Below, piece after piece: positions 3,064-61,215 of a stretch of 61,215 nucleotides of DNA. Source of the stretch: a virus (taxonomy: Duplodnaviria > Caudoviricetes); IMG/VR virus record IMGVR_UViG_3300022833_000412, positions 1 to 61,215 of that record; one strand, 5' to 3'. The notes under the pieces are model-generated. The model was not told where the DNA came from and ran no database searches. It saw only the letters and a program-made list of their open reading frames with translations. The translations under genes were made by a program, and so were the position numbers. Every line of letters begins with the position of its first letter. Position 1 is the first letter of the stretch.

Positions 3064-3274
3064 CATATACTCAACGCATAGAAACGATAGGTATCTTAGT
3101 GCTGACCCAATATACAGAGGGATAAGGTATCAATGTAAAGCATAGAATTAAAACTTGCTGAAACACTATCAAACTACTACAAGTAAAGTAACACCTGTTA
3201 ACATTACTTTTATAACATCAAAGTTGCAATAAAGTAGAAATCATATATATTTATAATTAAATAAATACACCTAC

Positions 3275-4291: not shown

Positions 4292-6625
4292 ATGGCTGAC
4301 GATTCAAGTAACATTTCAAAAGAAGCTTTACAGATAGAAGACCAAAGAAGACTTCTACTTAGAGACCAACTCCTTAACCAGCAAGGTATTGTAGAGTCTT
4401 TGAAGGAAGCTTTAGGTATAAAGACTAGGTTAACAGAGTTCGAAGGAGAACAGCTTAAAACCTCACGGGAAATAGCAAAAGCGTTAAGTAATCAAAATAC
4501 ATCCCTAACTTCTTTAGCAGATAAGAATAAACAAATTGAAAAAAATAAAGCTTTAATTGCAAGAACCTCTCTTTCTCAAAGTATACTTGAGAGTAAAAAT
4601 GTAAAGATAGCTATCCAACAAAGTAGTTTACTTAAAGAACAACTTAAAAGATTACAAGAGGAACAGAGTAGGAAGGCTGAAAGCGGAGAGCTAAATGAAA
4701 AAGCGATTCAAGACCAACAGGCTATAGTTCAAGCAACAGAGGATCAGTACAATCTAGGTCTACAAGCACTAACTCTTCAAGAGCAAGCAGAATACTTCCA
4801 GCATGAAGCTATTCAAAACCTTACTGAAGCAACTGCTCAACGAGAGCGAGAACGGGATACGATACTAGAGATAGGAACAGCTATGGGACTTTCGGGTCAA
4901 ATAGCAAAAGGACTGAGTAAAATACCCGGATTCAAGGGACTTGAAGGAAGTGTAGGGATAGTAGAGGAAAAACTACGGCAAATAGCCGATGCAGGTGAAG
5001 AACTTCCTAGTAGTTACAAAACCTTTAGCATGATAGTAAAGCAGACAGGTAAAGACCTAGCTAAAAAACTACTAGACCCTCTTGTATCTGCAGCTTTCGT
5101 AACAACTCAAATAGCAAGTATCTTTAAGAGAATGGATACTTTAACATCCGGGACTGCAAGAAATTTCGGTATAAGTAATGAACAAGCAGGAGAACTTAAC
5201 AAAGAACTAACAGAAACCGCAACAACACAAGAAGGACTCTTCGGAAGTACTACAAACCTAAATGAAGCATTCCAGGTATTAAACAACAGGTACGGAACAT
5301 TTGCAAAGTTCGGAGAAGAGAACCTAAAAACCTTCGTAAGACTTACAAAAGAAGCAGGTATTTCTGGAGATGTAGTAGAATCTCTACAGGATACTACCTA
5401 CTTAACAGGAAAGACGTTAAAAGAACAGACTATTGAATACAAAGGACAGGTAAAGATCTTAAAAGCCACGACAGGGTTAGCTCTAAACGAAAAACAGATC
5501 CTAGAAAGTATAAAAGATGTATCTACAGCAACGAAGATACAACTAGGAGGCTCTGCAGAAGCTATAGCAACCGCAGTCTTTAAAGCAAAAGCATTAGGAG
5601 TAGAGATGAAAGATCTTGAAAACATCAGTAGTTCACTTCTAAACTTCCAATCCTCAATTGAAGACGAATTAGCTGCGGAACTCCTAACAGGTAAGCAGTT
5701 AAACCTAGAAGGTGCAAGGTATGCAGCTCTTATAGGAGATCAAGGAATGCTAGCAGAGGAATTAGCAAGCAACTTCGGTACAGTAGCTGACTTCCAACGT
5801 ATGAACGTAATTGAACAAGGAGCTTTAGCACAAGCTGTAGGATTAACAAGAGACTCCCTCGCTGAATCTTTAATGAAAAGGGAAGCAATGCTCGCCTTAT
5901 CTCAATTCGAAGGTAATACTGAAAAAGAGAAGTATGCAACCGCAGTACAGCAGCTAGGTGTTGATGGAGCAAGACTTCAATTAGGTAACGATGCCCTAGC
6001 TACACAAATGGAATCAGTCTCCTTACAAGATAAAATGGCAGCAGCAGGCGTAAAACTTCAAGAAGCACTTGTACCATTAGCTTCTGGAGTACTACCTGTA
6101 ATAAGTACAATCTTTAAATTCATAGGGGATAATATTAACGGCATAGTAACCGCTCTAAAACTTGTAATCCCATTGATGGTAGCCTATAAAGCAGCAAGTA
6201 TAGCAGCCGCAGTAGCCAACATCGCCGGCGCCGCTGCTCTTTCGGCTGGAGCTGCTGGAATAATAGCAACAGTAGCAGGAGTAGCAGCACTTGCATTCCT
6301 TACTACAATAGGGGACGGAATATTTCCTGCAGAAGGTAAAACAACAATCTCTCCGAAAGAAGGAGGTTTATTTCAAGTTAGTCCTAACGACGACATAATA
6401 GTAGCTCCAGGAATAGCTAAGACTGTTAGAAGTAACTCTAATAACAATAATAGTAACAACTCTCAACAAATAGAGAATAAGGTAAACATCACTCCTTCAA
6501 ATACAAACATAACCTTAACCTTAGACGGACAGTCGATAGGTAATGCAAATGCACGACAATCCTACAGAGTAGGTAGTAATGTAAAAGCATTTGGAGGTAA
6601 TGTAGATATGAGTGCTTACACTTAA
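4292..6625 (+). CDS. Tail tape measure protein
   Basis: 777 aa, helical and Ala/Gln/Glu-rich, with SLLNFQSSIEDELAAELLTGKQLNLE and a hydrophobic Ala-rich C-terminal segment. Follows the chaperone. Confidence 0.85.
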   Translation: MADDSSNISKEALQIEDQRRLLLRDQLLNQQGIVESLKEALGIKTRLTEFEGEQLKTSREIAKALSNQNTSLTSLADKNKQIEKNKALIARTSLSQSILESKNVKIAIQQSSLLKEQLKRLQEEQSRKAESGELNEKAIQDQQAIVQATEDQYNLGLQALTLQEQAEYFQHEAIQNLTEATAQRERERDTILEIGTAMGLSGQIAKGLSKIPGFKGLEGSVGIVEEKLRQIADAGEELPSSYKTFSMIVKQTGKDLAKKLLDPLVSAAFVTTQIASIFKRMDTLTSGTARNFGISNEQAGELNKELTETATTQEGLFGSTTNLNEAFQVLNNRYGTFAKFGEENLKTFVRLTKEAGISGDVVESLQDTTYLTGKTLKEQTIEYKGQVKILKATTGLALNEKQILESIKDVSTATKIQLGGSAEAIATAVFKAKALGVEMKDLENISSSLLNFQSSIEDELAAELLTGKQLNLEGARYAALIGDQGMLAEELASNFGTVADFQRMNVIEQGALAQAVGLTRDSLAESLMKREAMLALSQFEGNTEKEKYATAVQQLGVDGARLQLGNDALATQMESVSLQDKMAAAGVKLQEALVPLASGVLPVISTIFKFIGDNINGIVTALKLVIPLMVAYKAASIAAAVANIAGAAALSAGAAGIIATVAGVAALAFLTTIGDGIFPAEGKTTISPKEGGLFQVSPNDDIIVAPGIAKTVRSNSNNNNSNNSQQIENKVNITPSNTNITLTLDGQSIGNANARQSYRVGSNVKAFGGNVDMSAYT

Positions 6626-6664
6626 AATTAACAAACGTTCATATTTATAATAAATTAAAAAATC

Positions 6665-6952
6665 ATGGGAATACTAGACTTACTAAGAGACAAAGGGTCA
6701 GAACTATCGAAGCATAACGGAGCAACCCCACCAACAAACCCTCTATCTTCAAAATTATCAAAACTACACTCAACAACCGACGGATTAGCGGGATACTCTT
6801 TAAATGGAGCCTTTCAAGGAGAAGTTAACCAAGCATACCACCAGTATGATGATGGGCAGATTAACGCATTACCCCAACCATCTAATTTAGACCTAAACGG
6901 AAAGCAGCCAAAAGGATACAAACACCCTGAGACCGGAGTAACTTACCCTTAA
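6665..6952 (+). CDS. Hypothetical tail-module protein
   Basis: 95-aa ORF after a TATTTATA box, coupled (TAATG) to the next gene. Confidence 0.7.
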   Translation: MGILDLLRDKGSELSKHNGATPPTNPLSSKLSKLHSTTDGLAGYSLNGAFQGEVNQAYHQYDDGQINALPQPSNLDLNGKQPKGYKHPETGVTYP

Positions 6953-8790
6953 TGGCACTAAAAGACCTCTTAACAGATTTAGGGTCGTTTTATGAAAATA
7001 ACCCATTCGCAGCTAAGTATAAAACCAAGGCCGGACCTACCTATGCTCAAAAGTACGGGTTTAACCAAAGAAGTTTAAAGTTTACTAACGATAGACCGGG
7101 TAATGCTAACAGTAGACAACCTTTTATAACCTCAAACATACCTGACGTTAACTCTAACCCTCAAGCAGGTACGGGGTTGATAGGAGGCATACAGAGACAA
7201 GTTGAAAATAGATTACAGGACCTATCAAGAATATCTCAATTCCTAACAACACCTAAGGGACTACTCTTTATAGGAAAACAAGAGATACTCTCAGCTCAAA
7301 ACCCCATAGTGCCGGGGAGACCTAATAGGACAGACCCGACAAAAGGAAGATATAACCCATTATCAACGTTAGTTCAAGTTGCAGCAAGCGGTACCGGGCT
7401 ACATTTAGAAAAACAAGGACTAGTACCTATAGCTCTACAAGATAATCAAGTTAAGTATGAAAAAGTATACTTAAAATTAGATAAGGAAGATAAAGGAAGA
7501 CTCTCCAACCTCTATAGGTATAAAATTGCAAAGGAAGAACTCAAAAAAGCAGATCAAGCTACTTTAAAACTAACTGGTATTTCATTAAACGAGAATTACT
7601 TAATAGAGTACCAAGGAGGGCCGGGTATATCTAAAACCATTATTAGAGCAACAAACCACGGCGTATATAATGGCTCAGGACTAGGTGATTCAATATACAC
7701 TTGGAACCAGAAAGACTTTAATAACGTAATACCGGCATCAAAGAATAACTCTGGACCCACAATACTACCTGATTTTAGGAGTAGTATTGCAGCAACTACT
7801 GTAAATAAGACAGCTGGAATCTTCGGCGAAAATACAGTAGACTACTCCTCTGCTAAAGTAAACAAGATAACCAGAGTAGGTTTAGGAGATCCAGGTAGAA
7901 GAGCTAGAAACAGGAGTAACCTGTATAGAGGTGACTTTGAAAGTGTAGATAAAGTAGCTGCTATGCCCTTATACAAAGGACCTATAGCAGCGGAAGACGG
8001 ATATACAAGAGATTTTATAAGATTTAGATTCGAAGTATTAGATAATGATGAAGATACTAACACTAACATACACTTTAGAGCTTTTTTAGGAGCGATAACA
8101 GATAATTTCGGGGGAGATTGGAACCCCACTAGATTCGTAGGTAGAGCAGATAACCTTTACAGCTATACAGGATTTACCCGAACCATAAGTTTGAGTTTCA
8201 CAGTACATCCTCAAACAAGAGACGAGATGAAGGCAATGTACCAAAAACTCACCTACCTTGCATCAACACTAGCACCTGACTACAGTTCAAACGGCGGTTA
8301 CATGAGAGGTAATATAGTAAGGCTAGTAGTTGGCAGCTACCTTTACAGAATACCAGGTTTTATAACAAGTCTAACCTATACCGTACCTGAAAATGCATCT
8401 TGGGAAATAGCATACAATGAACCGGAAAAAGGAACTGAATCAGACCAACTGGAAGCACCAAGACACTTTGATGTACAGTTAAGCTTCACTCCTATACACG
8501 ACTTCGCACCGCAGTTGATGGATGGGACAAGGAAATACGCTCTCTTCACACCACCGGACCAAGCAAACTCAGGCCAGCCTAACCCCTACCTGCCTACGAA
8601 AGACGGAACGAGTGTCATCTCTGCTGATGCTGACTTAGCAGAGAATGTACTAAATAAAGCACTTAATGCTCCACCTCCTACAGTGAAAAGTAAAGAAGTA
8701 GACTTCGGTTTAGATAATCAAAAAGACCCGGGACTTAATCTAAACGGTGGAAGACAGCCTACGTTTATCAAACCTCTAAATTTAACATAG
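6952..8790 (+). CDS. Baseplate / tube-initiator-like structural protein
   Basis: C-terminal tube-fold-like region (FRAFLGAITDNF..WNP..VGRADNLYSYTGFTRTISLSF; GFITSLTY), directly upstream of the LysM gene. Confidence 0.6.
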   Translation: MALKDLLTDLGSFYENNPFAAKYKTKAGPTYAQKYGFNQRSLKFTNDRPGNANSRQPFITSNIPDVNSNPQAGTGLIGGIQRQVENRLQDLSRISQFLTTPKGLLFIGKQEILSAQNPIVPGRPNRTDPTKGRYNPLSTLVQVAASGTGLHLEKQGLVPIALQDNQVKYEKVYLKLDKEDKGRLSNLYRYKIAKEELKKADQATLKLTGISLNENYLIEYQGGPGISKTIIRATNHGVYNGSGLGDSIYTWNQKDFNNVIPASKNNSGPTILPDFRSSIAATTVNKTAGIFGENTVDYSSAKVNKITRVGLGDPGRRARNRSNLYRGDFESVDKVAAMPLYKGPIAAEDGYTRDFIRFRFEVLDNDEDTNTNIHFRAFLGAITDNFGGDWNPTRFVGRADNLYSYTGFTRTISLSFTVHPQTRDEMKAMYQKLTYLASTLAPDYSSNGGYMRGNIVRLVVGSYLYRIPGFITSLTYTVPENASWEIAYNEPEKGTESDQLEAPRHFDVQLSFTPIHDFAPQLMDGTRKYALFTPPDQANSGQPNPYLPTKDGTSVISADADLAENVLNKALNAPPPTVKSKEVDFGLDNQKDPGLNLNGGRQPTFIKPLNLT

Positions 8791-9092
8791 TGAACAGATA
8801 CACAGATACAGAGACATATAAACAAAAGGAAGGACCGACTTATCAGGGAGTTACCAGGTACCCGGAAATACCGGAGACTGAGAACGATACATACGTGATT
8901 ACAACTTACGGTGATAGGTTAGACTTATTAGCAAACCAATATTATAAAGACTGGAGACTTTACTGGATAATCGCATCAGCTAACCCTAGCTTGCCTTCTA
9001 ACTCATTATACCCTACATTAGGAGTACAGATTCGGATACCAGGTAACCCCGAAGATGTTATAAACAGTTTTAACAATATAAATAATGGCTAA
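8790..9092 (+). CDS. LysM-type baseplate protein (gp53/tail X-like)
   Basis: GDRLDLLANQYYKDWRLYWIIASAN...GVQIRIP. Confidence 0.85.
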   Translation: MNRYTDTETYKQKEGPTYQGVTRYPEIPETENDTYVITTYGDRLDLLANQYYKDWRLYWIIASANPSLPSNSLYPTLGVQIRIPGNPEDVINSFNNINNG

Positions 9093-10773
9093 GTCAAAAA
9101 TACTAGGAGAACCGTTCGATGAATATGTAAGTAAACAAATCGAAGTAAGACAGAACCGTTTAGGAACATCACAAAAGACTGCAGACGATTTAAAAGTCTT
9201 TAATGCAAGTACCCCGTGGATAAGACTAAGCTCATCAGTAAGTGTAGACGCTACAAGAGCTAAGAAGTTAGCAGAGAGGTTAGGTCCAAATGTAACTACC
9301 GAACAAGTACAGGGTTACAATCTAGCTAAAAACCTAGTCTTATTTGCAGGTTCTTCAGAAGCATTAGATAGTAAGATAAGAGGGGGTTTAACTCGAGGAG
9401 GGTTCGATGGAAGTTACGGATTTTTATCAGATCCTAAGACTCAAGGTTATAAACCAATGCCTGGACTAAGTAATGTCAACGTAAACTATAAAAACAACGG
9501 ATCGCTAAAACAAGCTCAAGTAAACATTAAATGTTTTAGTAAGGGTCAATTTGAAGCACTTGAGACCCTGTATTTAAGATTAGGTTATACCTTAATTCTA
9601 GAATGGGGACACTCTATGTACTACGATAACTCTACTGAGAAGCAGAATATGAGTTCTTTAGAAATACCTAACGCTCTTTTTCAAACAGACAGTAACATAG
9701 GTAGTAAAATACTCACTAAGAGTATAGCAGATAATAAAGATAGAACAGGAGGTAACTACGATGCAATAGTTGCAAAAGTAAGTAACTTCTCCTGGACTCT
9801 AAACAACGACTTAAGTTACGATATAATATTAAATTTAGTATCAGTAGGAGACGTTATTGACTCTTTAAAAATGAACCTAGGTGGAGGTAGAGGGGTTAGC
9901 AAAGAGAATAGTAAAGTCAACGGTAAAGTTAATCAAGGGTTACAAAACATATTAAACCTACGGTTAAGTAAAGAAGTGTCACTACTAAACGCATTCCTTT
10001 ATGACCTAACAGACGAACTGCTAACAAAGACATCAAAAACCCAGTTTCAAAAAACAACCCAGAAGATAGTGGAGGACTTAAACCTAGTAGAGACGTTAGT
10101 AGAAGAGGCAGAAGATAAAAAGTTAAAAGCTAATTACATAAGTACGATTAAAGCCCAACGTTCTGCCTTTACCGAACCATACGACAAATTAATAGAATTT
10201 CTCAACGGTAAAATATTAATAAAAAATGACAGAACAGATCAAGTAACCTTTAAGTATATAAACTCAGAAGCTACAAGCAGTAAGTTACTAAAGAAGTACC
10301 TTACTCTAGCCCTCGAACTTCCCCCGTTTACGTATGTTAACCAAGTGGATTATATATATACACATAGATTTATAAAAACATTAGGTTACGAGTTAATAAA
10401 TAATAATATGAACTCAGAACTGACATTAAAGAGAGACACTACAAAAAGAATATCGGCAACCTTTGAAAACTTTAAACAAGTACTTGCTGATACGGAAAAT
10501 TACATTAAAAACCTTAACGTTACTGGAGTAACTAACACTGAAGAAAAAGACATTCAGACAAACACAGACGAAATAAACTTCCTAATCAAGTCCTTACCCT
10601 CTAGGAACTCCGTACTAATTAACCTTTATGAATACGGAGCATGGGAAGGAAACGGAAGAAATCTATTTGGCCTTTCGACAGGTACTCCTCTAAAGTATGA
10701 GCATAACAACCTAAAACTAAAAAATTCAACTAGTAGGAACCAGTTCTTAGAGTTTATAAAAAGAGATCGATAA
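9085..10773 (+). CDS. Baseplate hub-like protein, N-terminal part
   Basis: PMPGLSNV..GSLKQAQVNIKC, LYLRLGYTLILEWG and GNYDAIVAKVSNFSW motifs; position after the LysM gene. Confidence 0.65.
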   Translation: MAKSKILGEPFDEYVSKQIEVRQNRLGTSQKTADDLKVFNASTPWIRLSSSVSVDATRAKKLAERLGPNVTTEQVQGYNLAKNLVLFAGSSEALDSKIRGGLTRGGFDGSYGFLSDPKTQGYKPMPGLSNVNVNYKNNGSLKQAQVNIKCFSKGQFEALETLYLRLGYTLILEWGHSMYYDNSTEKQNMSSLEIPNALFQTDSNIGSKILTKSIADNKDRTGGNYDAIVAKVSNFSWTLNNDLSYDIILNLVSVGDVIDSLKMNLGGGRGVSKENSKVNGKVNQGLQNILNLRLSKEVSLLNAFLYDLTDELLTKTSKTQFQKTTQKIVEDLNLVETLVEEAEDKKLKANYISTIKAQRSAFTEPYDKLIEFLNGKILIKNDRTDQVTFKYINSEATSSKLLKKYLTLALELPPFTYVNQVDYIYTHRFIKTLGYELINNNMNSELTLKRDTTKRISATFENFKQVLADTENYIKNLNVTGVTNTEEKDIQTNTDEINFLIKSLPSRNSVLINLYEYGAWEGNGRNLFGLSTGTPLKYEHNNLKLKNSTSRNQFLEFIKRDR

Positions 10774-12764
10774 TGAGCACAGAAAGCAATACAGACTTTA
10801 TAAACAAAATAAAGGAGAAAACATACGGAGGTTTTAACGCCATAGAGTATGCAGATGGAGGGTTAGAAGTATACCTCTCCTTTAAAGCTCTTTTAGAATG
10901 GACAAACAGTAATGTAAACTTATTCTCAGACACTGAAGAATTAATAAAAATAGACTTCGAATCTGATAAACCTATGTTTATGTTCTCTACCTCTTTGTCC
11001 GCCAATCTACAAAAATGCTACATACGGAACACATACCTTAATACAACACAAGGTACATTATTCCGGAGTCCACGATTAGAACGAAACGCAACTCTACCAG
11101 CACCTTTTAACGATATAAGCGCATTTAACCAAAGCCGACTTAGGACTCTTAAAGAATCTCTAGATTCAGACGGACAAAAGGTATCTACCGATTCAAACCT
11201 AACTTATATTTTTCCTACTATAGGTAATATAAACAACATCTACATAAATGCTGCATTCCTTTCCGGACAACTACATAAGTTAAGCGATAATGAAAGTAAT
11301 AAAGTCTCAATACGTGAATTCTTACAAAGTATATGCGACGGGGTAACTAAAGCCTTAGGAAGTGTTAACGACCTACAAGTAGTAGGAGATGTAGACGGTA
11401 TTCAGAATATACTAACTATAGTAGATTTTCAACAAGTACGTATAAAAGGTCTTTCGAAGAGTTCAAACGTCGACCAGTACAAAGCAGTAACTATACAAGC
11501 TCAAGGATTGAAAAGCATGGTTACAAACATATCTGCACAATCCTCCATTACCCCTGACCTTGCTACTGTAATCTCTACCGGAGCTCAAGCGCAGGGAGAA
11601 GTATTAGGAGAGGAAGCTGTATCTTTCTCGAGACTAAGTAAAGGGTTAACCGATAGAGTGTATCCGAGTAAACAAATAGGAGAGCAGGTCAAAGTAGCAG
11701 CAGTAACAAAGAAAGAAGAGAGAGCTAAGAAAGCCTTAAGTAAATTCGAAGGAAACTTAGATGCCTACGCAAAACTAGCATTAAACCAACAACCCGGTAC
11801 AGACGGTATTTTTAGTCATATAAGTTTAGAGTCGAATAGTAAAGAAGGTATGGAGAATATACCAGTAGAGCTTTACAAATACCTACTAGGAGCATTCACA
11901 GAAACAAACCAAACAAGCACAGGGTTCATACCAATAAAATTAAACCTATCCATATACGGAATAAGCGGAATAAAGATATTCCAAAAGTTTAAAATTACAG
12001 ACGACGTACTTCCCTTTTCGTACGACCAGAAGTATGACTTTACAGTAACCGGCGTAAGTCATACTGTAGATAATTCAAAATGGGTAACAACCATATCTTC
12101 TATAATGGGATTAGAAGCACTACCTGCAGATAGAGCAACAAGACTTAGTAATGAAGAAGCTTTTGCCCCTCAATTAAACTTAGAAAAAACTCAAACCATA
12201 GCAAAGCCTGATAAGAATGATAAGCAAGCTATTACAATACTTACTGTAAACGCAACAAAAAAAGCTGTTATAAACGGTGAAGTTCCTGCTGAGTATATGA
12301 GAGAACTAAATAAAGAATTATTCCCTTATAATAAGTGGAAAGGTAGTACCTTAACGAGCGATAAAGGTAGGATAAGGTTATTAAGACCGGTAATGTCAAA
12401 CTTAGAGAAAATGCTCACAGCATACAGTAAAGATAATCCAAACACTCCAATGCGTATAAATTCTGCATATAGAACTTTTGAAAATCAAGTAGCTATTAAG
12501 GACTTGTGGTTAAAAGCCGGTGACGGAGCAAAAGCAGCTACTGCTGGAACATCAAAACACGGATTCGGTATGGCAATAGATTTTGCAAATAGTAGTGGAA
12601 CAAAGCTGAAAGTAGATATGTCGCAATATAAATGGCTTAAGGTAAATGCTGGGAAATACGGTTTTAAAAGGTTACCAAACTGGAAAGACAAAAAAGACCT
12701 TGAGAACTGGGAAGCCTGGCATTGGCAAAATATAAACCCAGGAGAAATAAAGACAGGTACCTAA
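10773..12764 (+). CDS. Baseplate hub-like protein, C-terminal part, fused to an M15 (VanY-like) D,D-peptidase
   Basis: GISGIKIFQKF and FTVTGVSHTVDNSKWVTTI hub-like segments. The C-terminus has INSAYRTFENQ, SKHGFGMAIDF and EAWHW (SxHxxGxAxD / ExWH). Confidence 0.8.
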   Translation: MSTESNTDFINKIKEKTYGGFNAIEYADGGLEVYLSFKALLEWTNSNVNLFSDTEELIKIDFESDKPMFMFSTSLSANLQKCYIRNTYLNTTQGTLFRSPRLERNATLPAPFNDISAFNQSRLRTLKESLDSDGQKVSTDSNLTYIFPTIGNINNIYINAAFLSGQLHKLSDNESNKVSIREFLQSICDGVTKALGSVNDLQVVGDVDGIQNILTIVDFQQVRIKGLSKSSNVDQYKAVTIQAQGLKSMVTNISAQSSITPDLATVISTGAQAQGEVLGEEAVSFSRLSKGLTDRVYPSKQIGEQVKVAAVTKKEERAKKALSKFEGNLDAYAKLALNQQPGTDGIFSHISLESNSKEGMENIPVELYKYLLGAFTETNQTSTGFIPIKLNLSIYGISGIKIFQKFKITDDVLPFSYDQKYDFTVTGVSHTVDNSKWVTTISSIMGLEALPADRATRLSNEEAFAPQLNLEKTQTIAKPDKNDKQAITILTVNATKKAVINGEVPAEYMRELNKELFPYNKWKGSTLTSDKGRIRLLRPVMSNLEKMLTAYSKDNPNTPMRINSAYRTFENQVAIKDLWLKAGDGAKAATAGTSKHGFGMAIDFANSSGTKLKVDMSQYKWLKVNAGKYGFKRLPNWKDKKDLENWEAWHWQNINPGEIKTGT

Positions 12765-27746: not shown

Positions 27747-27971
27747 ATGGTACTGAGAAAACAAAGTATTCGTAGAATTGAAGAAGTAACGTTAAACGGA
27801 AAACTTACAACAAAGGAAGAGTTGGTAGGATTAAGTTATAACTGGGCTGAGAAGGAAATAATTCTCTTTAAGAAAGTACTTTCCCAAGGAGGTGCCTGTA
27901 GAATAAGAGAAGACACCCTTAGAGTGAATAAAGAAGAAACACAGAGACCAGTCAGTGACAAAACAGCTTAG
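27747..27971 (+). CDS. Hypothetical protein
   Basis: 74-aa ORF in operon context. Confidence 0.6.
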   Translation: MVLRKQSIRRIEEVTLNGKLTTKEELVGLSYNWAEKEIILFKKVLSQGGACRIREDTLRVNKEETQRPVSDKTA

Positions 27972-28015
27972 TCTTAATAGTTGCTTAAAAGAGATATTAA
28001 ACTTATATTAATGTT

Positions 28016-54278: not shown

Positions 54279-54986
54279 ATGAAAAAGTTTATAAAAGGAA
54301 CTGAGTTAGTTCAAGCAGGTTTTGCTAACGGTATCTCTACACAGCTAGCTGCAAAGCAGTTAATAGATGGACCAGAAGCAAAGTTAACACTAGAAGAGAA
54401 GAACGATATTATAGTCGAAGCCTCTGAGCATTTTGGAAAGTTTCTTACCTCCTTAGGGGTAGATTGGGAGAACGACCCTAACTCTTCAGAAACTCCAATG
54501 AGAGTAGCTAAGGCATACGTAAATGATCTATTCTCAGGAAGGTATAACCCTCTTGATAGAATTACAGCATTCCCTAGTGATGGTTATTCAGGGGTTGTAT
54601 TTGAAGGGGGTATACCTCTTACGTCTATGTGCTCTCACCACCACGGTTTGATTAAAGGCGTAGTTCACGTAGCATATGTACCCTCTGCCTCAGGTAAAGT
54701 GGTTGGGTTATCTAAGATTAACCGTATTGTAGAACACTTCGGTAGACGAGGTGCTATACAGGAACAGCTAACAGTAGCTATCCATAACGCAGTCGATACT
54801 ATATGCGAAAGTAACGAAGGTGTAGCAGTAATGGTTGAAGCAACTCATGCATGCGTATCCTGTAGAGGAGTTAAGCATCACGGAGCAAGTATGAAAACTG
54901 CAAAGCTATCAGGCTGCTTCCTAGAAGAAGACTCAGCTAGAGCAGAATTCTACCACTTTACAAAAGGTTATACAAACCCAGCATAG
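54279..54986 (+). CDS. folE: GTP cyclohydrolase I
   Basis: ETPMRVAK, SMCSHH, VVGLSKINR, IQEQLT, ATHACVSCRG. Confidence 0.95.
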   Translation: MKKFIKGTELVQAGFANGISTQLAAKQLIDGPEAKLTLEEKNDIIVEASEHFGKFLTSLGVDWENDPNSSETPMRVAKAYVNDLFSGRYNPLDRITAFPSDGYSGVVFEGGIPLTSMCSHHHGLIKGVVHVAYVPSASGKVVGLSKINRIVEHFGRRGAIQEQLTVAIHNAVDTICESNEGVAVMVEATHACVSCRGVKHHGASMKTAKLSGCFLEEDSARAEFYHFTKGYTNPA

Positions 54987-58443: not shown

Positions 58444-58518
58444 ATGTACTAACTTACAGTTGCCTACGACTTAGCAAGTTCGTATATTTATAGTATAATA
58501 AGAAATAAATAAAAGTTT

Positions 58519-59316
58519 ATGATTAATTTTTCAAACCAAACACCGCTTACCTTAGAAGAGATAAGTGAGAAAGCACCAGCAGTTGTAGAGCAACATGCTT
58601 CACCTTTAGTTTCTAAACATTACATTCACATACCGACAACAAGGATACTTGACGATATGGCTAAATTAGGATGGAAAGTGATAGGGGCTGATCAACAGAC
58701 TTCAGGTAACCTTGATACGGATCGATATGCAAAGCATTTAGTTGCTTTTAGAAATGATAATATAGTACTCCGGACAGAGGATGGAGAGACTGTATTCCCT
58801 CAAGTATTAATTCAAAACTCTCATAACGCTTTAGGAGCCTTCTCGTTTAGTGCAGGGTTATACCGTGTAGCTTGTGCAAATGGTCTAGTAGTAGCTACTA
58901 AGAGTTTCGGATCACTTCGAATTAGACATAGGGGTTACTCTTTTGAAGAGTTGCAGGTTACAATAGTAAAGATGATAGAAGAACTTCCAGGTACAATAGA
59001 GGTATTGAATAAGTTTAGAGATGTCCAACTAAGCGAAGAGCAAAAGACAGAGTTTGCTTTAAGTGCTATGGGTATACGTTTCGCTGGTGATAAGGCAGTT
59101 GTAGAACCTAAGCTACTACTCACTCCTCTAAGAGAAGCTGATAAGGGCGATAGTCTCTGGACAGTATATAATATTCTACAAGAGAAAGTAATTAAAGGTC
59201 GTTTTGAGTATACTACTTCGACTGGTAAGGTAAGAACTGCTAAACCAATAAAAGCATTTCAGAGAGATATAAAAATGAATAAAGAACTATTCGCTTTAGC
59301 AGAGCAATTCGCATAG
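58519..59316 (+). CDS. DUF932/DUF945 family protein
   Basis: APAV, HIPT, KHLVAFR, PQVLIQNSH, AGLYRVACANGLV, IRHRG, LWTVYNILQE. Confidence 0.88.
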   Translation: MINFSNQTPLTLEEISEKAPAVVEQHASPLVSKHYIHIPTTRILDDMAKLGWKVIGADQQTSGNLDTDRYAKHLVAFRNDNIVLRTEDGETVFPQVLIQNSHNALGAFSFSAGLYRVACANGLVVATKSFGSLRIRHRGYSFEELQVTIVKMIEELPGTIEVLNKFRDVQLSEEQKTEFALSAMGIRFAGDKAVVEPKLLLTPLREADKGDSLWTVYNILQEKVIKGRFEYTTSTGKVRTAKPIKAFQRDIKMNKELFALAEQFA

Positions 59317-59319
59317 TCT

Positions 59320-59868
59320 ATGGAAACTTCTAAATATAATACCTGGGTAGCTTTCTTCTCTCAAACCGGATCCGAAATAGCTTCTATAGCAGAGGCTCTC
59401 GGCCGGTGGCCGGATAAGATTATAACAAACAAGAGACCCTCGGAAGTGAGAACTATAAGCTCAAAGTTAGCCGGAAAAGAGATTACTTATATTAGTAATA
59501 AACCAACACCAGACGAATACATTACTGCGCTAGGGGAAGGGGTTAAAGTTATAACACTACACGGATGGTTAAGGATAGTACCGCATGAAGTCATAGACAA
59601 GTATCCTAACATTTTAAACGGTCATCCGGGTATACTCCCTCTACTAGCAGGAAAGGATCCTCAAGAGAAAGCATTTCACCTGAATCTAGACGTCTCAGCT
59701 TGTGTTATACATAAGGTCTCGGTAGGAGTAGATGAAGGACCTATCTTAGAGGAGAGACTGGTGCATATAAAGGATTTGAACTTAGAGGAGGTGTACAGTG
59801 TACTTCATAAAAACTCTATAGAACTATGGATAAGTTATCTTCAAAGGTTAGACCTTTTAGTTGTCTAG
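59320..59868 (+). CDS. PurN-like formyltransferase, probably the preQ1 formyltransferase (DpdN-like)
   Basis: VAFFSQTGS, TLHGWLRIVP, ILNGHPGILP..GKDPQ, CVIHKV...VDEGPIL. No other de novo purine genes in the window, but a full preQ1 pathway is present. Confidence 0.8.
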   Translation: METSKYNTWVAFFSQTGSEIASIAEALGRWPDKIITNKRPSEVRTISSKLAGKEITYISNKPTPDEYITALGEGVKVITLHGWLRIVPHEVIDKYPNILNGHPGILPLLAGKDPQEKAFHLNLDVSACVIHKVSVGVDEGPILEERLVHIKDLNLEEVYSVLHKNSIELWISYLQRLDLLVV

Positions 59869-59919
59869 TAAATATATTCTTCGTATATTTAAGTATAATA
59901 AGATATCGAAATAGGAGTT

Positions 59920-60180
59920 ATGACAAATACAAAAACACAATACCAAAAAGACCTGCAGGTTAACTTAAACCTAAACGGCAAGGATTTCCCGAAAGGACAG
60001 TGGAACTTAGTACATTCGATAAGGGAAGTAACTCTGTTTAGTAAAGGAATAAAGCCACATAGGATGTGGAGACTGCAAGATGTAAAAAACTATTACGGAC
60101 TAAAGGGAAATACTCTCTCTATTTTGAAGCAATTAAAAATGTTGAGAAGTGAAGAGTTAAATACTACTTTAGTTGCTTAA
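59920..60180 (+). CDS. Hypothetical early protein
   Basis: 86 aa, after an early promoter. Confidence 0.65.
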   Translation: MTNTKTQYQKDLQVNLNLNGKDFPKGQWNLVHSIREVTLFSKGIKPHRMWRLQDVKNYYGLKGNTLSILKQLKMLRSEELNTTLVA

Positions 60181-60207
60181 TACAAATACTATTCGTATAT
60201 TACGTAA

Positions 60208-60657
60208 GTAATAAGTTCATTGACACAATAACAGAATATAAAAAATTATATAACAATAAACAATAGGGCATAGCGTAACTGGAGTAGCTTGGAACTACGT
60301 CAACAGCTCCTAAGACGTTAAGTAGAGATATTCTCACGAGCCCTATTGTTTATTGTTATATAAAAATATTATTAGCAGTAAAGCTGATTAAATTGAGATT
60401 AAGGTAAAGGTTAGCCTCTCATTCATGCAGTAACCTTGTAAGACCCGAAAAGCTAATTTTAAACTCTTTGATTGAAGATAAACGATAATTTTATATCTAT
60501 AACCACCATAAGAACGTTTGGTAGATAATAATTATAGACTGTATCAGCAGTTGTGTTTATTGTAGAGATGTTAGATATCTTCACGGATATATAGATTAAC
60601 CATATCGACCTAGTGTAAAGGGTAACATTCCATAACTGAAATTTGGACAAAGAGTTT
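60208..60657 (+). ncRNA. Candidate structured non-coding RNA(s)
   Basis: Promoter at 60173-60203; no credible + strand ORF. Perfect 24-bp inverted repeat (60246-60269/60340-60363), two further closed modules, and pseudoknot potential. Confidence 0.5.
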
Positions 60658-60662
60658 TATAA

Positions 60663-60773
60663 GATAAAAAGAGTGATATTGATGCTGGAGGGGAACCTTT
60701 GAAGGCTATTACAATATTAACAGCTAAAGTATTGCAGCCTTGGCAGGAGTTTATTATTCTGTATGGTTGCTAA
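60663..60773 (+). pseudogene. Start-less ORF remnant ending in the first attC-like arm
   Basis: Reads DKKSDIDAGGEPLKAITILTAKVLQPWQEFIILYGC*. The stop TAA lies inside GGTTGCTAAC. Confidence 0.35.
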
Positions 60774-60980
60774 CGGTTTGGGTATGGTTAGATTTTTAAC
60801 GGATAAATAGATAAATTATGGATAATATAGAGAAAAGTGAATTATTAGAACTTAAAACAAATCTGATAAAAGATATTAGAAAATGGAAGCCAAGCGGAGG
60901 AGATGTTCCTGATTGCTTTACAATGTTGTACGATTACGATGAGGCTGTTAAAAAATTAACTATACCCGTTGTTAGCAACC
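60765..60980. repeat. attC-like imperfect inverted repeat 1
   Basis: Left arm GGTTGCTAAC-GGTTT-GGGTAT-GGTTA-GATTTTTAAC (60765-60800); reverse complement of the right arm GGTTGCTAAC-AAC-GGGTAT-AGTTA-ATTTTTTAAC (60947-60980). Confidence 0.8.
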
Positions 60981-61084
60981 GAAGGGAACTGTTAACGGCG
61001 TATGAGTTTTATAAACGTGGGGAAATTCCTGACGATAATTGGGATATTGATTTATTCCTTGGGATTGCAAAAAGCAGTTTATAG
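60818..61084 (+). CDS. Hypothetical cassette-like protein reading through the hairpin arm
   Basis: 88 aa. Starts in the loop of hairpin 1, the right arm encodes KKLTIPVVSN, and the stop abuts hairpin 2. Confidence 0.7.
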   Translation: MDNIEKSELLELKTNLIKDIRKWKPSGGDVPDCFTMLYDYDEAVKKLTIPVVSNRRELLTAYEFYKRGEIPDDNWDIDLFLGIAKSSL

Positions 61085-61185
61085 TTGGTAACGACCTTAA
61101 TAAAATGAGTAGTGCATCTTCACTACACTTGGATAGAAGCAAAACGGCTGCAATGCACTATTCAATTTATTTATTGTTAGCAGCT
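61083..61185. repeat. attC-like imperfect inverted repeat 2
   Basis: Left arm AGTTGGTAAC-GACC-TTAATAAAATGAGTAGTGCAT; reverse complement of the right arm AGCTGCTAAC-AA-TAAATAAATTGAATAGTGCAT. Confidence 0.75.
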
Positions 61186-61215
61186 TTTAAATTTAATATT
61201 ATGAGATTTTACAAA

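Follow-up and report, generated by a model that had tools for sequence, protein, structure and literature searches.

Two consecutive imperfect inverted repeats at the right end of the phage DNA analysed here (61,215 nt, hereafter the window) are probably recombination sites of an integron-like cassette system of Bacteroidota and their phages. An attC-like architecture had been proposed for them from the letters alone; it was borne out, and the sites were found to belong to a cassette-bounding family. This family of integron-like sites, separating small swappable genes in Bacteroidota phages and chromosomes, is very large, and the two hairpins of the window are outliers of it in sequence.

According to the mechanism proposed, a site would fold on one DNA strand, reading 5'-(C)TAAC|G ... 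GTTA(G)-3', and a cassette would consist of one site and the small ORF behind it. A tyrosine recombinase of Xer/IntI type would exchange strands inside TAA|CG (G|TTA on the other strand); for the window phage the enzyme would be supplied by the host or by another element. In this way cassettes could be cut out, put in and copied, moving from one position to another and also among unrelated phages that share their hosts. The original prediction of a cassette-shuffling hairpin array is supported in part: the attC-like family, the turnover of cassettes, the continuation of the row and the lack of an integrase stand, while the place of the crossover and the supposed sign of gene fusion do not.

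The hairpins and the reading frames around them

Arm pairing and folding confirmed that both hairpins possess the outer TAAC/GTTA core, the asymmetric unpaired spacer and the second stem ascribed to them. Hairpin 1 (60765-60980, + strand) was defined by arm pairing, folding and comparison with homologues. Its left core box (60765-60774), with TAACG at 60771-60775 and a putative crossover at TAA|CG, shows 100% complementarity over 10 nt to the right core box GTTAGCAACC (60971-60980). Unpaired spacers of 5 nt (60775-60779) and 3 nt (60968-60970) lead to a second stem of 21 nt (60780-60800 / 60947-60967, complementarity 86%), which encloses the loop (60801-60946). The RNA fold gave z = -6.4 and the DNA fold of the + strand -25.6 kcal/mol (z = -4.3), 0/200 shuffles being equally good in either case; for the - strand the DNA values were -19.0 kcal/mol and z = -3.2. 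By fold strength this is the top TAAC...GTTA pair of the 61-kb window, both strands considered. In comparison with the homologue in loci L004 and L003 the stem has changed on both sides with pairing preserved; the L004 homologue has lost the TAACG core.

Hairpin 2 (61085-61184, + strand) begins with the left core GTTGGTAAC (61085-61093, TAACG at 61089-61093), which pairs with the right core region TTGTTAGCAGC (61174-61184). Its unpaired spacers measure 4 nt and 2 nt, and its second stem (61099-61117 / 61153-61171) 19 nt with 89% complementarity. The RNA fold gave z = -3.8 and the DNA fold z = -2.2 (4/200 shuffles equally good; - strand z = -1.4), and the energy lies within the background of the window, where about seven other TAAC...GTTA pairs are equally strong. 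Hairpin 2 is credible not for its energy but because a conserved variant exists in another phage and because cassette borders fall at it. The variant, in locus L014, carries compensatory changes in the inner stem. In L004 a 127-nt stretch with 100% identity starts exactly at T 61089 behind a different gene; the right end of this shared segment (61215) is not at a core. The hairpin was found behind three different genes, identity beginning each time at TAACG. Assemblies of independent runs break at the T of this TAACG, and a Logan contig begins at the same base (position 2632 of locus L002).

In attC sites the core boxes are RYYYAAC (R'') and GTTRRRY (R'), and extrahelical bases mark the recombined bottom strand. 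The boxes of hairpin 1 (TGCTAAC / GTTAGCA) and of hairpin 2 (TGGTAAC / GTTAGCA) agree with this consensus at 5/7 positions each; the CTAAC/GTTAG centre is present in both hairpins and the outer positions deviate. The intervening segment had also been described as bounded by inverted sequence; the words concerned (GTTAGCAAC-N7-AACTGTT / AGCAGTT-N4-GTTGGTAAC) are there, each with a single mismatch, and for the most part coincide with the core boxes of hairpins 1 and 2.

Upstream of hairpin 1, an open frame of 36 codons without ATG (60663-60773, + strand) runs into the left core, whose TAA is its stop (...YGC*). It showed no relatives among the compared loci beyond copies of the same sequence, and could represent the 3' end of a cassette gene that has since disappeared. 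The cassette ORF proper (60818-61084, + strand, 88 aa, no known family) runs as had been described: it starts inside the hairpin 1 loop, it crosses the right arm (KLTIPVVSNRRELL), which encodes ...KLTIPVVSN..., and its stop lies one base before hairpin 2. Pfam and PHROGs contained 0 families matching it. The passage of an ORF through a core arm had been taken as a hint of fusion. The read-through is real; it is a regular trait of phage cassettes, because their ORF lies on the folding strand, and is no sign of fusion per se. The homologue in L003 and L004 shares 59% over residues 19-88, and against L004 the similarity is about 33% aa over residues 19-45 and jumps to about 84% aa over residues 46-88, the DNA being 91% identical from the right core TGTTAGC onward. 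The recombination of N- and C-terminal halves that had been proposed is suggested by this jump, the single observation that points to it. Beyond hairpin 2 the next cassette ORF (MRFYK..., 61201-61215, + strand) is cut by the window end; it comprises 41 aa in L002 (2744-2869), where a single Logan contig covers positions 2632-2869 as one piece.

A family of sites in phages and chromosomes of Bacteroidota

Locus L002 shows 100% identity to window positions 58458-61215 and extends 5866 bases beyond. In it a unit comes after the stop codon of a small ORF at 2314, 3112, 3577, 3851, 4209 and 4631, and in the extension nearly every small ORF has a unit behind it. The row was expected to continue past the right edge, and it does so with at least six more units within 2.5 kb and no recombinase detected; the two window sites are 100 nt apart. 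One unit downstream carries GTTAGGT, a full match to GTTRRRY. Provided that the sites count as attC-like, the locus contains at least two close attC sites with no intI nearby, which is the definition of a CALIN.

Within the window the sites occur only in the final 500 bases; the others lie in the extension. Over the whole window neither TAACGN6TAT (5 found, 3.1 expected) nor CTAACG (24 found, 24.7 expected) was enriched, and a right-core-like GTTAGC inside the next ORF (L002 2850-2975) gave no fold (z = 0.09). Rfam had 0 matches in the whole window at gathering level; at E <= 1 it matched one tRNA only and no unit in L002, L014 and L015, and in seven bacterial loci its matches were limited to weak ones to leader peptides, at a distance from the units. 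With ARAGORN, neither the window nor five loci yielded a tRNA.

Four related phage records contained 49 matches to the motif, 18 of which have a folding energy under -19.7 kcal/mol, the 1st percentile for 210 control sites. These 18 strong units likewise have an unpaired spacer and a variable loop, and whole-site lengths of 48-227 nt. Identical units are common to a phage of about 165 kb and to phages of about 32-38 kb. The closest cultured relative is Flavobacterium phage immuto (DNA polymerase 59% aa), whose 160 kb hold 0 copies of TAACGNNNNGTATA, and from such relatedness the host of the window phage is likely Flavobacterium-like. When 50,697 phage records were searched by blastn with the window end, no match was obtained.

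A strict pattern for short units, searched in viral contigs and genome contigs, was present in at least 120 stretches of each. The sources were mostly Bacteroidota (about 70/80 titles among the genome matches listed). Each unit folds with a short stem at the core, then an unpaired spacer that is asymmetric and a second stem, usually starting GTATA, which carries a loop of 3 to >200 nt; the loops have neither sequence nor length in common, and gene starts often lie inside them. A linear conserved stretch (..aATT..GC) was also seen upstream of the paired part. Profiles made from 227 strict short units reached only E = 0.96 at the left core of hairpin 1 and gave nothing at hairpin 2, nor at the right arm of either hairpin.

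The inner stems have a marked strand asymmetry, carried by G.T wobbles. On the strand reading TAACG, G.T mismatches outnumber A.C mismatches by 116:6 in 87 distinct viral units and by 139:13 in 113 distinct bacterial units, and a separate count gave 22:1; the counts are drawn from related sequences, so that the events are not independent. In phages the flanking genes lie on the TAACG strand ('+unit+' in 91/130 cases), whereas in bacteria they lie on the strand opposite to it ('-unit-' in 76/124 cases). Since the G.T bias is the same while gene orientation differs, the units are better understood as a fold of single-stranded DNA than as an mRNA feature, and single-stranded DNA would be the substrate of recombination. 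As in attC, it is one strand that folds, as seen from the G.T bias of the units and from the two DNA energies of hairpin 1. A regular bulged G or T was not seen among the units as an extrahelical base; in one subfamily a bulged T near the loop was noticed by eye. Because the folding strand is independent of gene direction, three early explanations were dropped: RNase III sites, retron RNA and a plain palindrome bound by a protein.

Cassette borders and the recombinase of the bacterial arrays

Three gains, losses or duplications of cassettes were found with borders inside TAA|CG = G|TTA, the crossover point of integrons; one of the mapped borders is resolved to a single bond and the others lie within (T/C)AACG. 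In G001 a 277-nt cassette is duplicated 13 kb apart with 99.3% identity. The duplicate spans from the T of TAACG to the ...GGTAA of the next core, after which the two copies differ (C or T as the next base), and the same cassette also exists as a separate Logan contig. A segment consisting of a unit and a methyltransferase ORF is present in L015 and absent from L017, with the junction in (T/C)AACG. Hairpin 2 together with two ORFs is present in L002 and absent from L004; the joint 2630>3114 was found in 2/4 runs. All these relatives are metagenome assemblies or Logan contigs. The borders correspond to the G|TT border of attC (AA|C on the bottom strand).

It had been supposed that recombination at the GTT cores excises or reorders modules. 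Gains, losses and duplications with borders in the core agree with this; the crossover, however, maps to the left core (TAA|CG on the + strand), outside the ORFs, and the cassette is therefore one hairpin and the ORF behind it. Two joints going back, 4214>2297 (31 letters on the short side) and 4812>3577 (94 letters), each from one Logan contig, would fit a circle or a tandem copy. They are not counted as evidence because they are single Logan contigs at 90% likeness, one of them not ending at a core.

The window was said to hold no integrase, and a search of it together with the four related phage records, of which one is complete, detected no tyrosine recombinase (0/5). Among viral loci a weak recombinase-like match occurred in 1/128. 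The search for such an enzyme in phage or host, which the original prediction had called for, thus gave nothing in the phage records and a Xer-like enzyme beside bacterial arrays. In G006 and G009 rows of alternating genes and units adjoin a tyrosine recombinase, and in G005 the array of units covers at least 40 kb. Rufibacter hautae and Aquimarina latercula are among the bacteria with an array-linked recombinase. Homologues of the array recombinase occur in 12/120 unit-holding bacterial loci (each at most 8 kb long, among the matches listed), on the same side of the unit in 12/12 and on the same strand as the cassette genes in 10/12; in these 10/12 loci the gene is transcribed towards the array, in the cassette direction. 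According to the proposed mechanism, this enzyme would act on the sites.

With TIGR02249, whose curated threshold for integrases of integrons is 265 bits, the array recombinases reach 216.5 (G006) and 203.1 bits (G009), and the match is in two pieces. Where IntI4 (2a3v) has 62 residues the G006 protein has 25, the IntI-specific domain being absent. The array recombinase is closest to Xer proteins (PDB 4a8e, XerC-like, E = 1.6e-43; NF040815, XerA, 214 bits). An IntI with the additional domain around patch III, as a complete integron would possess, was not found in these arrays.

Comparison with known systems and alternative explanations

The sites resemble integron attC sites in the imperfect hairpin, the ..YAAC / GTT.. 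cores, the unpaired spacer, the second box and the variable loop, in that one strand folds better, in the occurrence of one site per gene in rows, and in a crossover consistent with G|TT. As in integrons, a tyrosine recombinase stands at one row end in bacteria. That recombinase differs in lacking the IntI-specific domain, in falling below the family cut-off and in reading towards the array (10/12). The hairpins differ in showing their strand asymmetry as G.T wobbles, no regular extrahelical bases having been seen, and in a second box with its own word, GTATA, and in these phages the ORF is on the folding strand, so that the site precedes the gene and can overlap its N-terminus. Xer/dif modules are alike in that the array recombinase is most similar to Xer proteins. 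However, dif-type sites are short and double-stranded, with two arms around a spacer, whereas the present sites are long strand-specific hairpins with gene-holding loops.

In the portions of Qi 2023 considered here, 17 CALINs are reported from 10,705 genomes and treated as parts of classical integrons (PMC9892861). They occur in virulent phages lacking an integrase, where the attC-like sites stand on either side of accessory genes, especially those for DNA methyltransferases (PMC9892861); the present rows are alike in having attC-like sites around accessory genes and no integrase. Polaribacter phage P12002L, a phage of Flavobacteriaceae, has two CALIN sites, and IntI1 recombined one predicted attC of this phage, using the bottom strand alone (PMC9892861). 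The same phage (NC_028924) holds units of the present family next to methyltransferase genes; its units stand at about 38936, 38090, 32281 and 30955, and the published attC sites may be among them. The account of CALINs in those portions of Qi 2023 differs in coming without this family, its size, the Xer-like recombinase and the reversed gene orientation (PMC9892861). No printed description of the Bacteroidota system beyond Qi 2023 was found in the literature searched, subscription journals and supplements being outside it.

The alternative that survives best, although it is unlikely, regards the units as regulatory cassettes resembling the PeSLs of T4-type phages. They would be transcription or RNA signals between small early genes (a terminator, an attenuator, processing or stabilising stem-loops, perhaps a promoter in the left arm), and shuffling would be a by-product of ordinary or microhomology recombination, with no dedicated recombinase. 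PeSLs are repeated stem-loops which begin from the upstream stop codon, precede small ORFan genes in hyperplastic regions and mark insertions, deletions and replacements between related phages (PMC2839356, PMC4122927). They contain sigma-70 promoters and terminators, shown to act so (Arbiol et al. 2010, PMC2839356), and recombine by homology over about 100 bp, mini-circles having been proposed as transfer vehicles (PMC2839356; Comeau et al. 2014, PMC4122927). The present units likewise start at or near the upstream stop codon, with the next start codon 20-130 nt later, and have the same layout and association with indels; in phages they lie on the sense strand with G.U-compatible pairs, and the conserved stretch upstream of the paired part would suit a signal.

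Several observations argue against this reading. The genes of bacterial arrays, which stand beside a recombinase, are encoded opposite to the folding strand, and yet the G.T bias is unchanged. No T run follows the stems, and a terminator scan of L002 found no + strand site at the units (4 terminator-like sites against 3.3 expected, one of them, on the - strand at 2669-2652, inside hairpin 2). A sigma-70 scan of L002 gave 42 sites against 41.7 expected, although that consensus may not suit a Flavobacterium-like host; two weak promoter-like sites (9/12) overlap units, one ending in the left core of hairpin 1 and one overlapping the left arm of hairpin 2. By these scans the units have neither the sigma-70 promoter in the motif nor the intrinsic terminator that characterize PeSLs. 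Promoters of Flavobacterium are of the type TTG...TAnnTTTG, and this type was seen elsewhere in these loci, not in the units. The borders lie within a 5-base core, too short for homologous exchange, and in bacteria the family is linked to one recombinase family. The phage hairpins are also present in mRNA and could have an additional regulatory role.

It is still less probable that the family is real downstream only and that the hairpins of the window are decayed relics or chance look-alikes. The poor detection by profiles (barely for hairpin 1, none for hairpin 2), the background energy of hairpin 2, the L004 homologue of hairpin 1 without its TAACG core and the upstream frame without a start codon would agree with decay. 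Against it, no other such fold in the 61 kb is as strong as hairpin 1, and compensatory changes keep its stem across a coding region; hairpin 2 recurs with 100% identity next to another gene of a different phage, from the very T of TAACG at which assemblies of independent runs break. In the reading preferred here, both window sites would still be active as recombination sites. Miniature elements moved single-stranded by an HUH (IS200/IS605-type) transposase, cutting beside a short target word next to the hairpin, are very improbable: the strand-specific fold, the fixed short word (TAAC) at the border and the wide, patchy distribution would agree with them, but the loops resemble each other neither in sequence nor in length and frequently include gene starts, the units stand in regular rows, one per gene, rather than scattered, and the enzyme adjoining the rows is a tyrosine recombinase.

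Returning to the integron-like cassette system, it is tempting to speculate, the chance being put at somewhat below even, that Bacteroidota and their phages possess a second, IntI-independent kind of integron, with a short Xer-like recombinase, G.T-marked hairpins, phage cassettes that mirror the bacterial ones by carrying the ORF on the folding strand, and a rare exchange at the right core that swaps N- and C-terminal halves. If so, the chemistry of recombination would be common to both pools, but any cassette passing from one to the other would be read backwards; and, because the phage hairpin overlaps the gene start, exchange at the right core could swap protein halves.

The handle TAACG-N4-GTATA...TATAC-N2-TGTT could find thousands of cassettes together with their cargo. 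If the interpretation is correct, the accessory genes of many Bacteroidota phages would be exchanged as ready-made cassettes by site-specific recombination, the cargo including DNA methyltransferases and many small unknown genes, maybe early or anti-host ones. The exchange would reach across unrelated phages and provide a defined mechanism for part of the mosaicism of "hyperplastic" regions, and the integron principle would extend to a recombinase without the IntI domain.

The hairpins and the row of units

The window is an entire IMG/VR phage record, linear, of 61,215 bases and with an estimated completeness of 37%; its large ORFs all lie on the + strand and include ribonucleotide reductase, family A DNA polymerase, GroEL, GTP cyclohydrolase I and formyltransferase. 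The DNA polymerase shares 59% identity with its counterpart in vB_FspM_immuto, a 160-kb Flavobacterium phage, so that the host is probably Flavobacterium-like. The presence of GTP cyclohydrolase I (54279-54986; Pfam E = 4e-44), together with QueF adjoining the polymerase in the cultured relative, suggests that the phage DNA carries a 7-deazaguanine modification.

Both inverted repeats near the right end of the window were found at the positions and with the architecture originally described. In hairpin 1 (+ strand) ten base pairs without mismatch form the outer stem (60765-60774 / 60971-60980); spacers of 5 nt and 3 nt separate it from a second stem of 21 bp at 86% pairing (60780-60800 / 60947-60967), which encloses a loop of 146 nt. 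It is the best TAAC...GTTA pair of the whole window and folds much better than shuffled sequence (RNA z = -6.4; DNA z = -4.3 for the + strand, -3.2 for the - strand). Hairpin 2 (61085-61184), whose outer boxes GTTGGTAAC / TTGTTAGCAGC are set off by 4-nt and 2-nt spacers from a second stem of 19 bp at 89%, is weaker (RNA z = -3.8, DNA z = -2.2), and its energy alone is not outside the background of the window's TAAC...GTTA pairs. An ORF of 88 aa (60818-61084) does start in the loop of hairpin 1, cross the right arm and stop one base before hairpin 2, as had been claimed, and the stop codon of an open frame lacking ATG (60663-60773) is the TAA in hairpin 1's left core. In the phage loci L003 and L004, which carry a homologue of the 88-aa ORF, the pairing of the second stem of hairpin 1 is kept through two-sided changes (GGG/CCC to ATC/GAT, T-A to G-C) despite the coding right arm, and the TAACG core is degenerate.

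The original prediction that the row runs past the right edge of the window was borne out by L002, a viral contig of record G001, which is 100% identical to window 58458-61215 and extends 5.9 kb further. Nearly every small ORF of L002 is followed, at or a few bases past its stop codon, by a unit built of xTAACG, 3-5 free bases, a stem usually starting with GTATA, a loop, the complementary TATAC, 2-3 free bases and GTTA. Units of the same build are present in the complete 38.5-kb phage G002, which has terminal repeats, and in G003 and G004, fragments of ~32-kb phages. Across these four records, folding energies under the 1st percentile of 210 control sites were obtained for 18 of 49 motif matches; the rest of the window shows no enrichment of the short motif words. 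A start codon in the loop and a right arm within the coding region recur in the units at L002 4209-4332 and G002rc 27871-27983 (L014), so that read-through of the arm by an ORF recurs regularly and is not peculiar to hairpin 1.

With the short-unit pattern TAACG-N4-GTATA-N8-38-TATAC-N2-TGTT, at least 120 stretches were retrieved from IMG/VR and at least 120 from GTDB contigs (one genome per species); the family is thus very large, and Rfam holds no family for these sites. The matches listed (88 from 80 viral loci, together with those from bacteria) are clearly related to each other rather than due to chance, and fall into subfamilies whose stem tops are conserved. Among the bacterial titles listed about 70 of 80 are Bacteroidota (Flavobacteriaceae, Saprospiraceae, Cytophagales and others), the remainder being mostly MAG contigs and one evident chance match. 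Hairpins 1 and 2 are peripheral members and sequence outliers of the family: with sequence profiles from 227 strict short units, the left core of hairpin 1 scored E = 0.96 and nothing else matched at either hairpin.

The longest inverted repeat of the window (60246-60363), a perfect 24-bp repeat (TTATATAACAATAAACAATAGGGC / its complement) around a 70-nt structured loop (RNA z = -7.6), contains TAAC/GTTA without spacer or mismatch and is no typical unit. A second repeated intergenic motif (..GATATTGTTCGTATATTCACGGTATAATAG..), placed just upstream of larger genes in the phage and its relatives (window 58478-58512 and 59871-59923; L002 4775-4808 and 7208-7258; also L006 and L007), may be a phage-specific promoter and has no relation to the hairpin units. 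About 450 bases past the window end, L002 3209-3336 matches the Rfam tRNA model at 33.9 bits (gathering score 29) over 128 nt with a ~55-nt insert; ARAGORN reported no tRNA there, and a 111-nt piece of this stretch (L002 3211>3323) is absent from L004 and from the contigs of two of four sequencing runs. At L002 ~6275-6760, long overlapping ORFs on both strands with repetitive products (..NSVSNSV.. / ..LNYLLNY..) point to a tandem repeat region.

The folding strand

Transition mismatches were counted in the inner stems, whose variable sequence the search pattern leaves free, with the TAACG strand as reference. G.T outnumbered A.C by 116 to 6 in 87 distinct viral units and by 139 to 13 in 113 distinct bacterial units, counts which represent related sequences and not independent events, the direction being nonetheless unambiguous; a first count, with arms picked by Watson-Crick matches only, had given 22 to 1. 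The orientation of flanking genes, called with a crude ORF caller, was '+unit+' for 91 of 130 phage units (11 '-unit+', 3 '+unit-', 7 inside a gene, 18 at locus edges) and '-unit-' for 76 of 124 bacterial units (15 '+unit-', 5 '+unit+', 10 inside genes, 18 at edges), i.e., the genes lie mostly on the TAACG strand in phages and mostly on the opposite strand in bacteria. Since the G.T bias is constant while the gene strand differs, the folding strand is a property of the element and not of the transcript. Such a pattern favours folding as single-stranded DNA, in the manner of attC sites, and disfavours a purely RNA-level role.

Cassette borders and a possible exchange at the right core

Three independent comparisons placed the cassette borders in the left core. 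The first is a duplication in G001: two copies of a 277-nt segment (unit and 66-aa ORF), 99.3% identical and separated by 13 kb, both reach from the T of TAACG to the ...GGTAA of the following core, where C comes next in one copy and T in the other. In L015 a unit with an NPPY methyltransferase ORF stands between ...ctgcTAACG and ...cctaCAACG; in L017 it is missing and ...ctgcTAACG is directly fused to the sequence behind the second core. Finally, the 88-aa ORF's stop and the unit at 3112 are separated in L002 by hairpin 2 and two ORFs, of 41 and 69 aa, and in L004 are joined to each other at ..gttgCTACGtgag... Single-bond resolution was obtained for the G001 border only, the others being ambiguous within four or five bases. 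TAA|CG reads CG|TTA on the opposite strand, the position at which integron R' boxes undergo crossover (G|TT; PMC9892861).

Hairpin 2 itself recurs in L004 behind an unrelated gene, with 127 nt at 100% identity from the T of TAACG on, and a diverged copy lies in G002 behind a third gene, its outer parts kept and GTGCAT/ATGCAC replaced by TGCAAG/CTTGCA. Logan contigs from four independently assembled runs agree with these borders: one contig begins with the T of hairpin 2's TAACG (L002 2632), where the other upstream context is a loose end; the duplicated cassette forms its own contig (L002 3577-3853); and the joint 2630>3114 occurs in two of the four runs. The window (at 61215) and the contig behind L004 (at L004 11065) have an identical last base, which is also the last of their common 127-nt segment and lies inside the fifth codon of the next ORF and not at a core; this common end is probably an assembly-graph branch. 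The 4.7 kb of L004 between the 88-aa ORF homologue and the hairpin 2 copy (6240-10938) include (e.g., at 6684-7230) an NPPY-motif DNA methyltransferase cassette and an HNH-plus-AP2 homing-endonuclease-like gene, both named by eye from translation.

The further proposal that recombination fuses different N- and C-terminal halves has one fitting case. The 88-aa protein and its L004 homologue share ~33% identity in residues 19-45, which are encoded in the loop, and ~84% in residues 46-88; at the DNA level, the stretch that starts with the right core TGTTAGC and runs to the stop matches at ~91%, upstream of it blastn gave no alignment, and an L004-type Logan contig joins L002 sequence at 2513, one base ahead of the right core. 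An exchange at the right core would explain this single identity jump, and unequal rates of change would explain it too.

Recombinases and known systems

The bacterial multi-unit loci are gene-unit-gene rows with ORFs of ~130-270 aa; in Aquimarina latercula (G005) 22 or more strict left motifs, which all share one strand, extend over 40 kb at a contig edge. Many array sites of L274 (G005:C3 1-20000) and L272 have only the left end, (T/C)AACGTTTA(A/G)TATA, in common with the short units; beyond it they extend into longer repeats particular to the array, ~100 nt or more in length, which recall the homogeneous repeats of large chromosomal integrons.

In the bacterial genomes G006 and G009 the genome-wide best match to an integron-integrase model lies 1.5 and 4.4 kb from the row, respectively. 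The two proteins score 216.5 and 203.1 bits on TIGR02249, in two pieces (cut-off 265), and 214.1 and 204.1 on the XerA/integron-integrase model NF040815 (cut-off 220), and their closest solved relative is a XerC-like protein. As the G006 protein has 25 residues opposite 62 of IntI4 (2a3v), the IntI-specific domain is missing; according to one survey, this insertion is not fully conserved in an 'integron-like' subgroup of tyrosine recombinases (PMC8138268). Homologues of the G006 and G009 proteins were found at 12 of 120 unit-holding bacterial loci (≤8 kb) and, as a weak match, at 1 of 128 viral loci; the gene is on the same side of the unit in all 12, and on the cassette-gene strand, pointing into the row, in 10. 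Neither the window nor any of the records G001, G002 (complete), G003 and G004 yielded a tyrosine recombinase.

The main rival reading takes the units as regulatory motifs like the promoter-early stem-loops (PeSLs) of T4-type phages, the closest regulatory analogue (PMC2839356, PMC4122927). Against it stand a folding strand independent of gene direction, the lack of a promoter or terminator consensus at the units, cassette borders confined to a 5-base core and the link to a recombinase. With integrons the system shares the attC architecture, the one-strand fold, rows with one site per gene, the crossover point and a terminal tyrosine recombinase. It differs in that the recombinase of the bacterial arrays lacks the IntI domain and scores below cut-off, the units have a conserved second box and apparently no regular extrahelical bases, and gene orientation is reversed in the phage cassettes.

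Clusters of attC sites lacking an integrase (CALINs) have been published for phages, including Polaribacter phage P12002L, whose predicted attC2 was recombined by IntI1 (PMC9892861); its genome contains units of the present family beside methyltransferase genes, of which the predicted attC2 is not necessarily one. No description of the Bacteroidota system as such was found in the literature searched, and a review names Bacteroidota among the phyla with integrons (PMC8618304).

The attC-like cassette shuffling originally proposed was largely right in kind, and its crossover site, cassette extent and enzyme need correction. In its corrected form we consider this reading likely on the basis of the sequence comparisons: the crossover would fall in the left core (TAA|CG), one cassette would comprise a hairpin and the ORF downstream of it, and the enzyme would probably be a Xer-like recombinase supplied in trans, not IntI.
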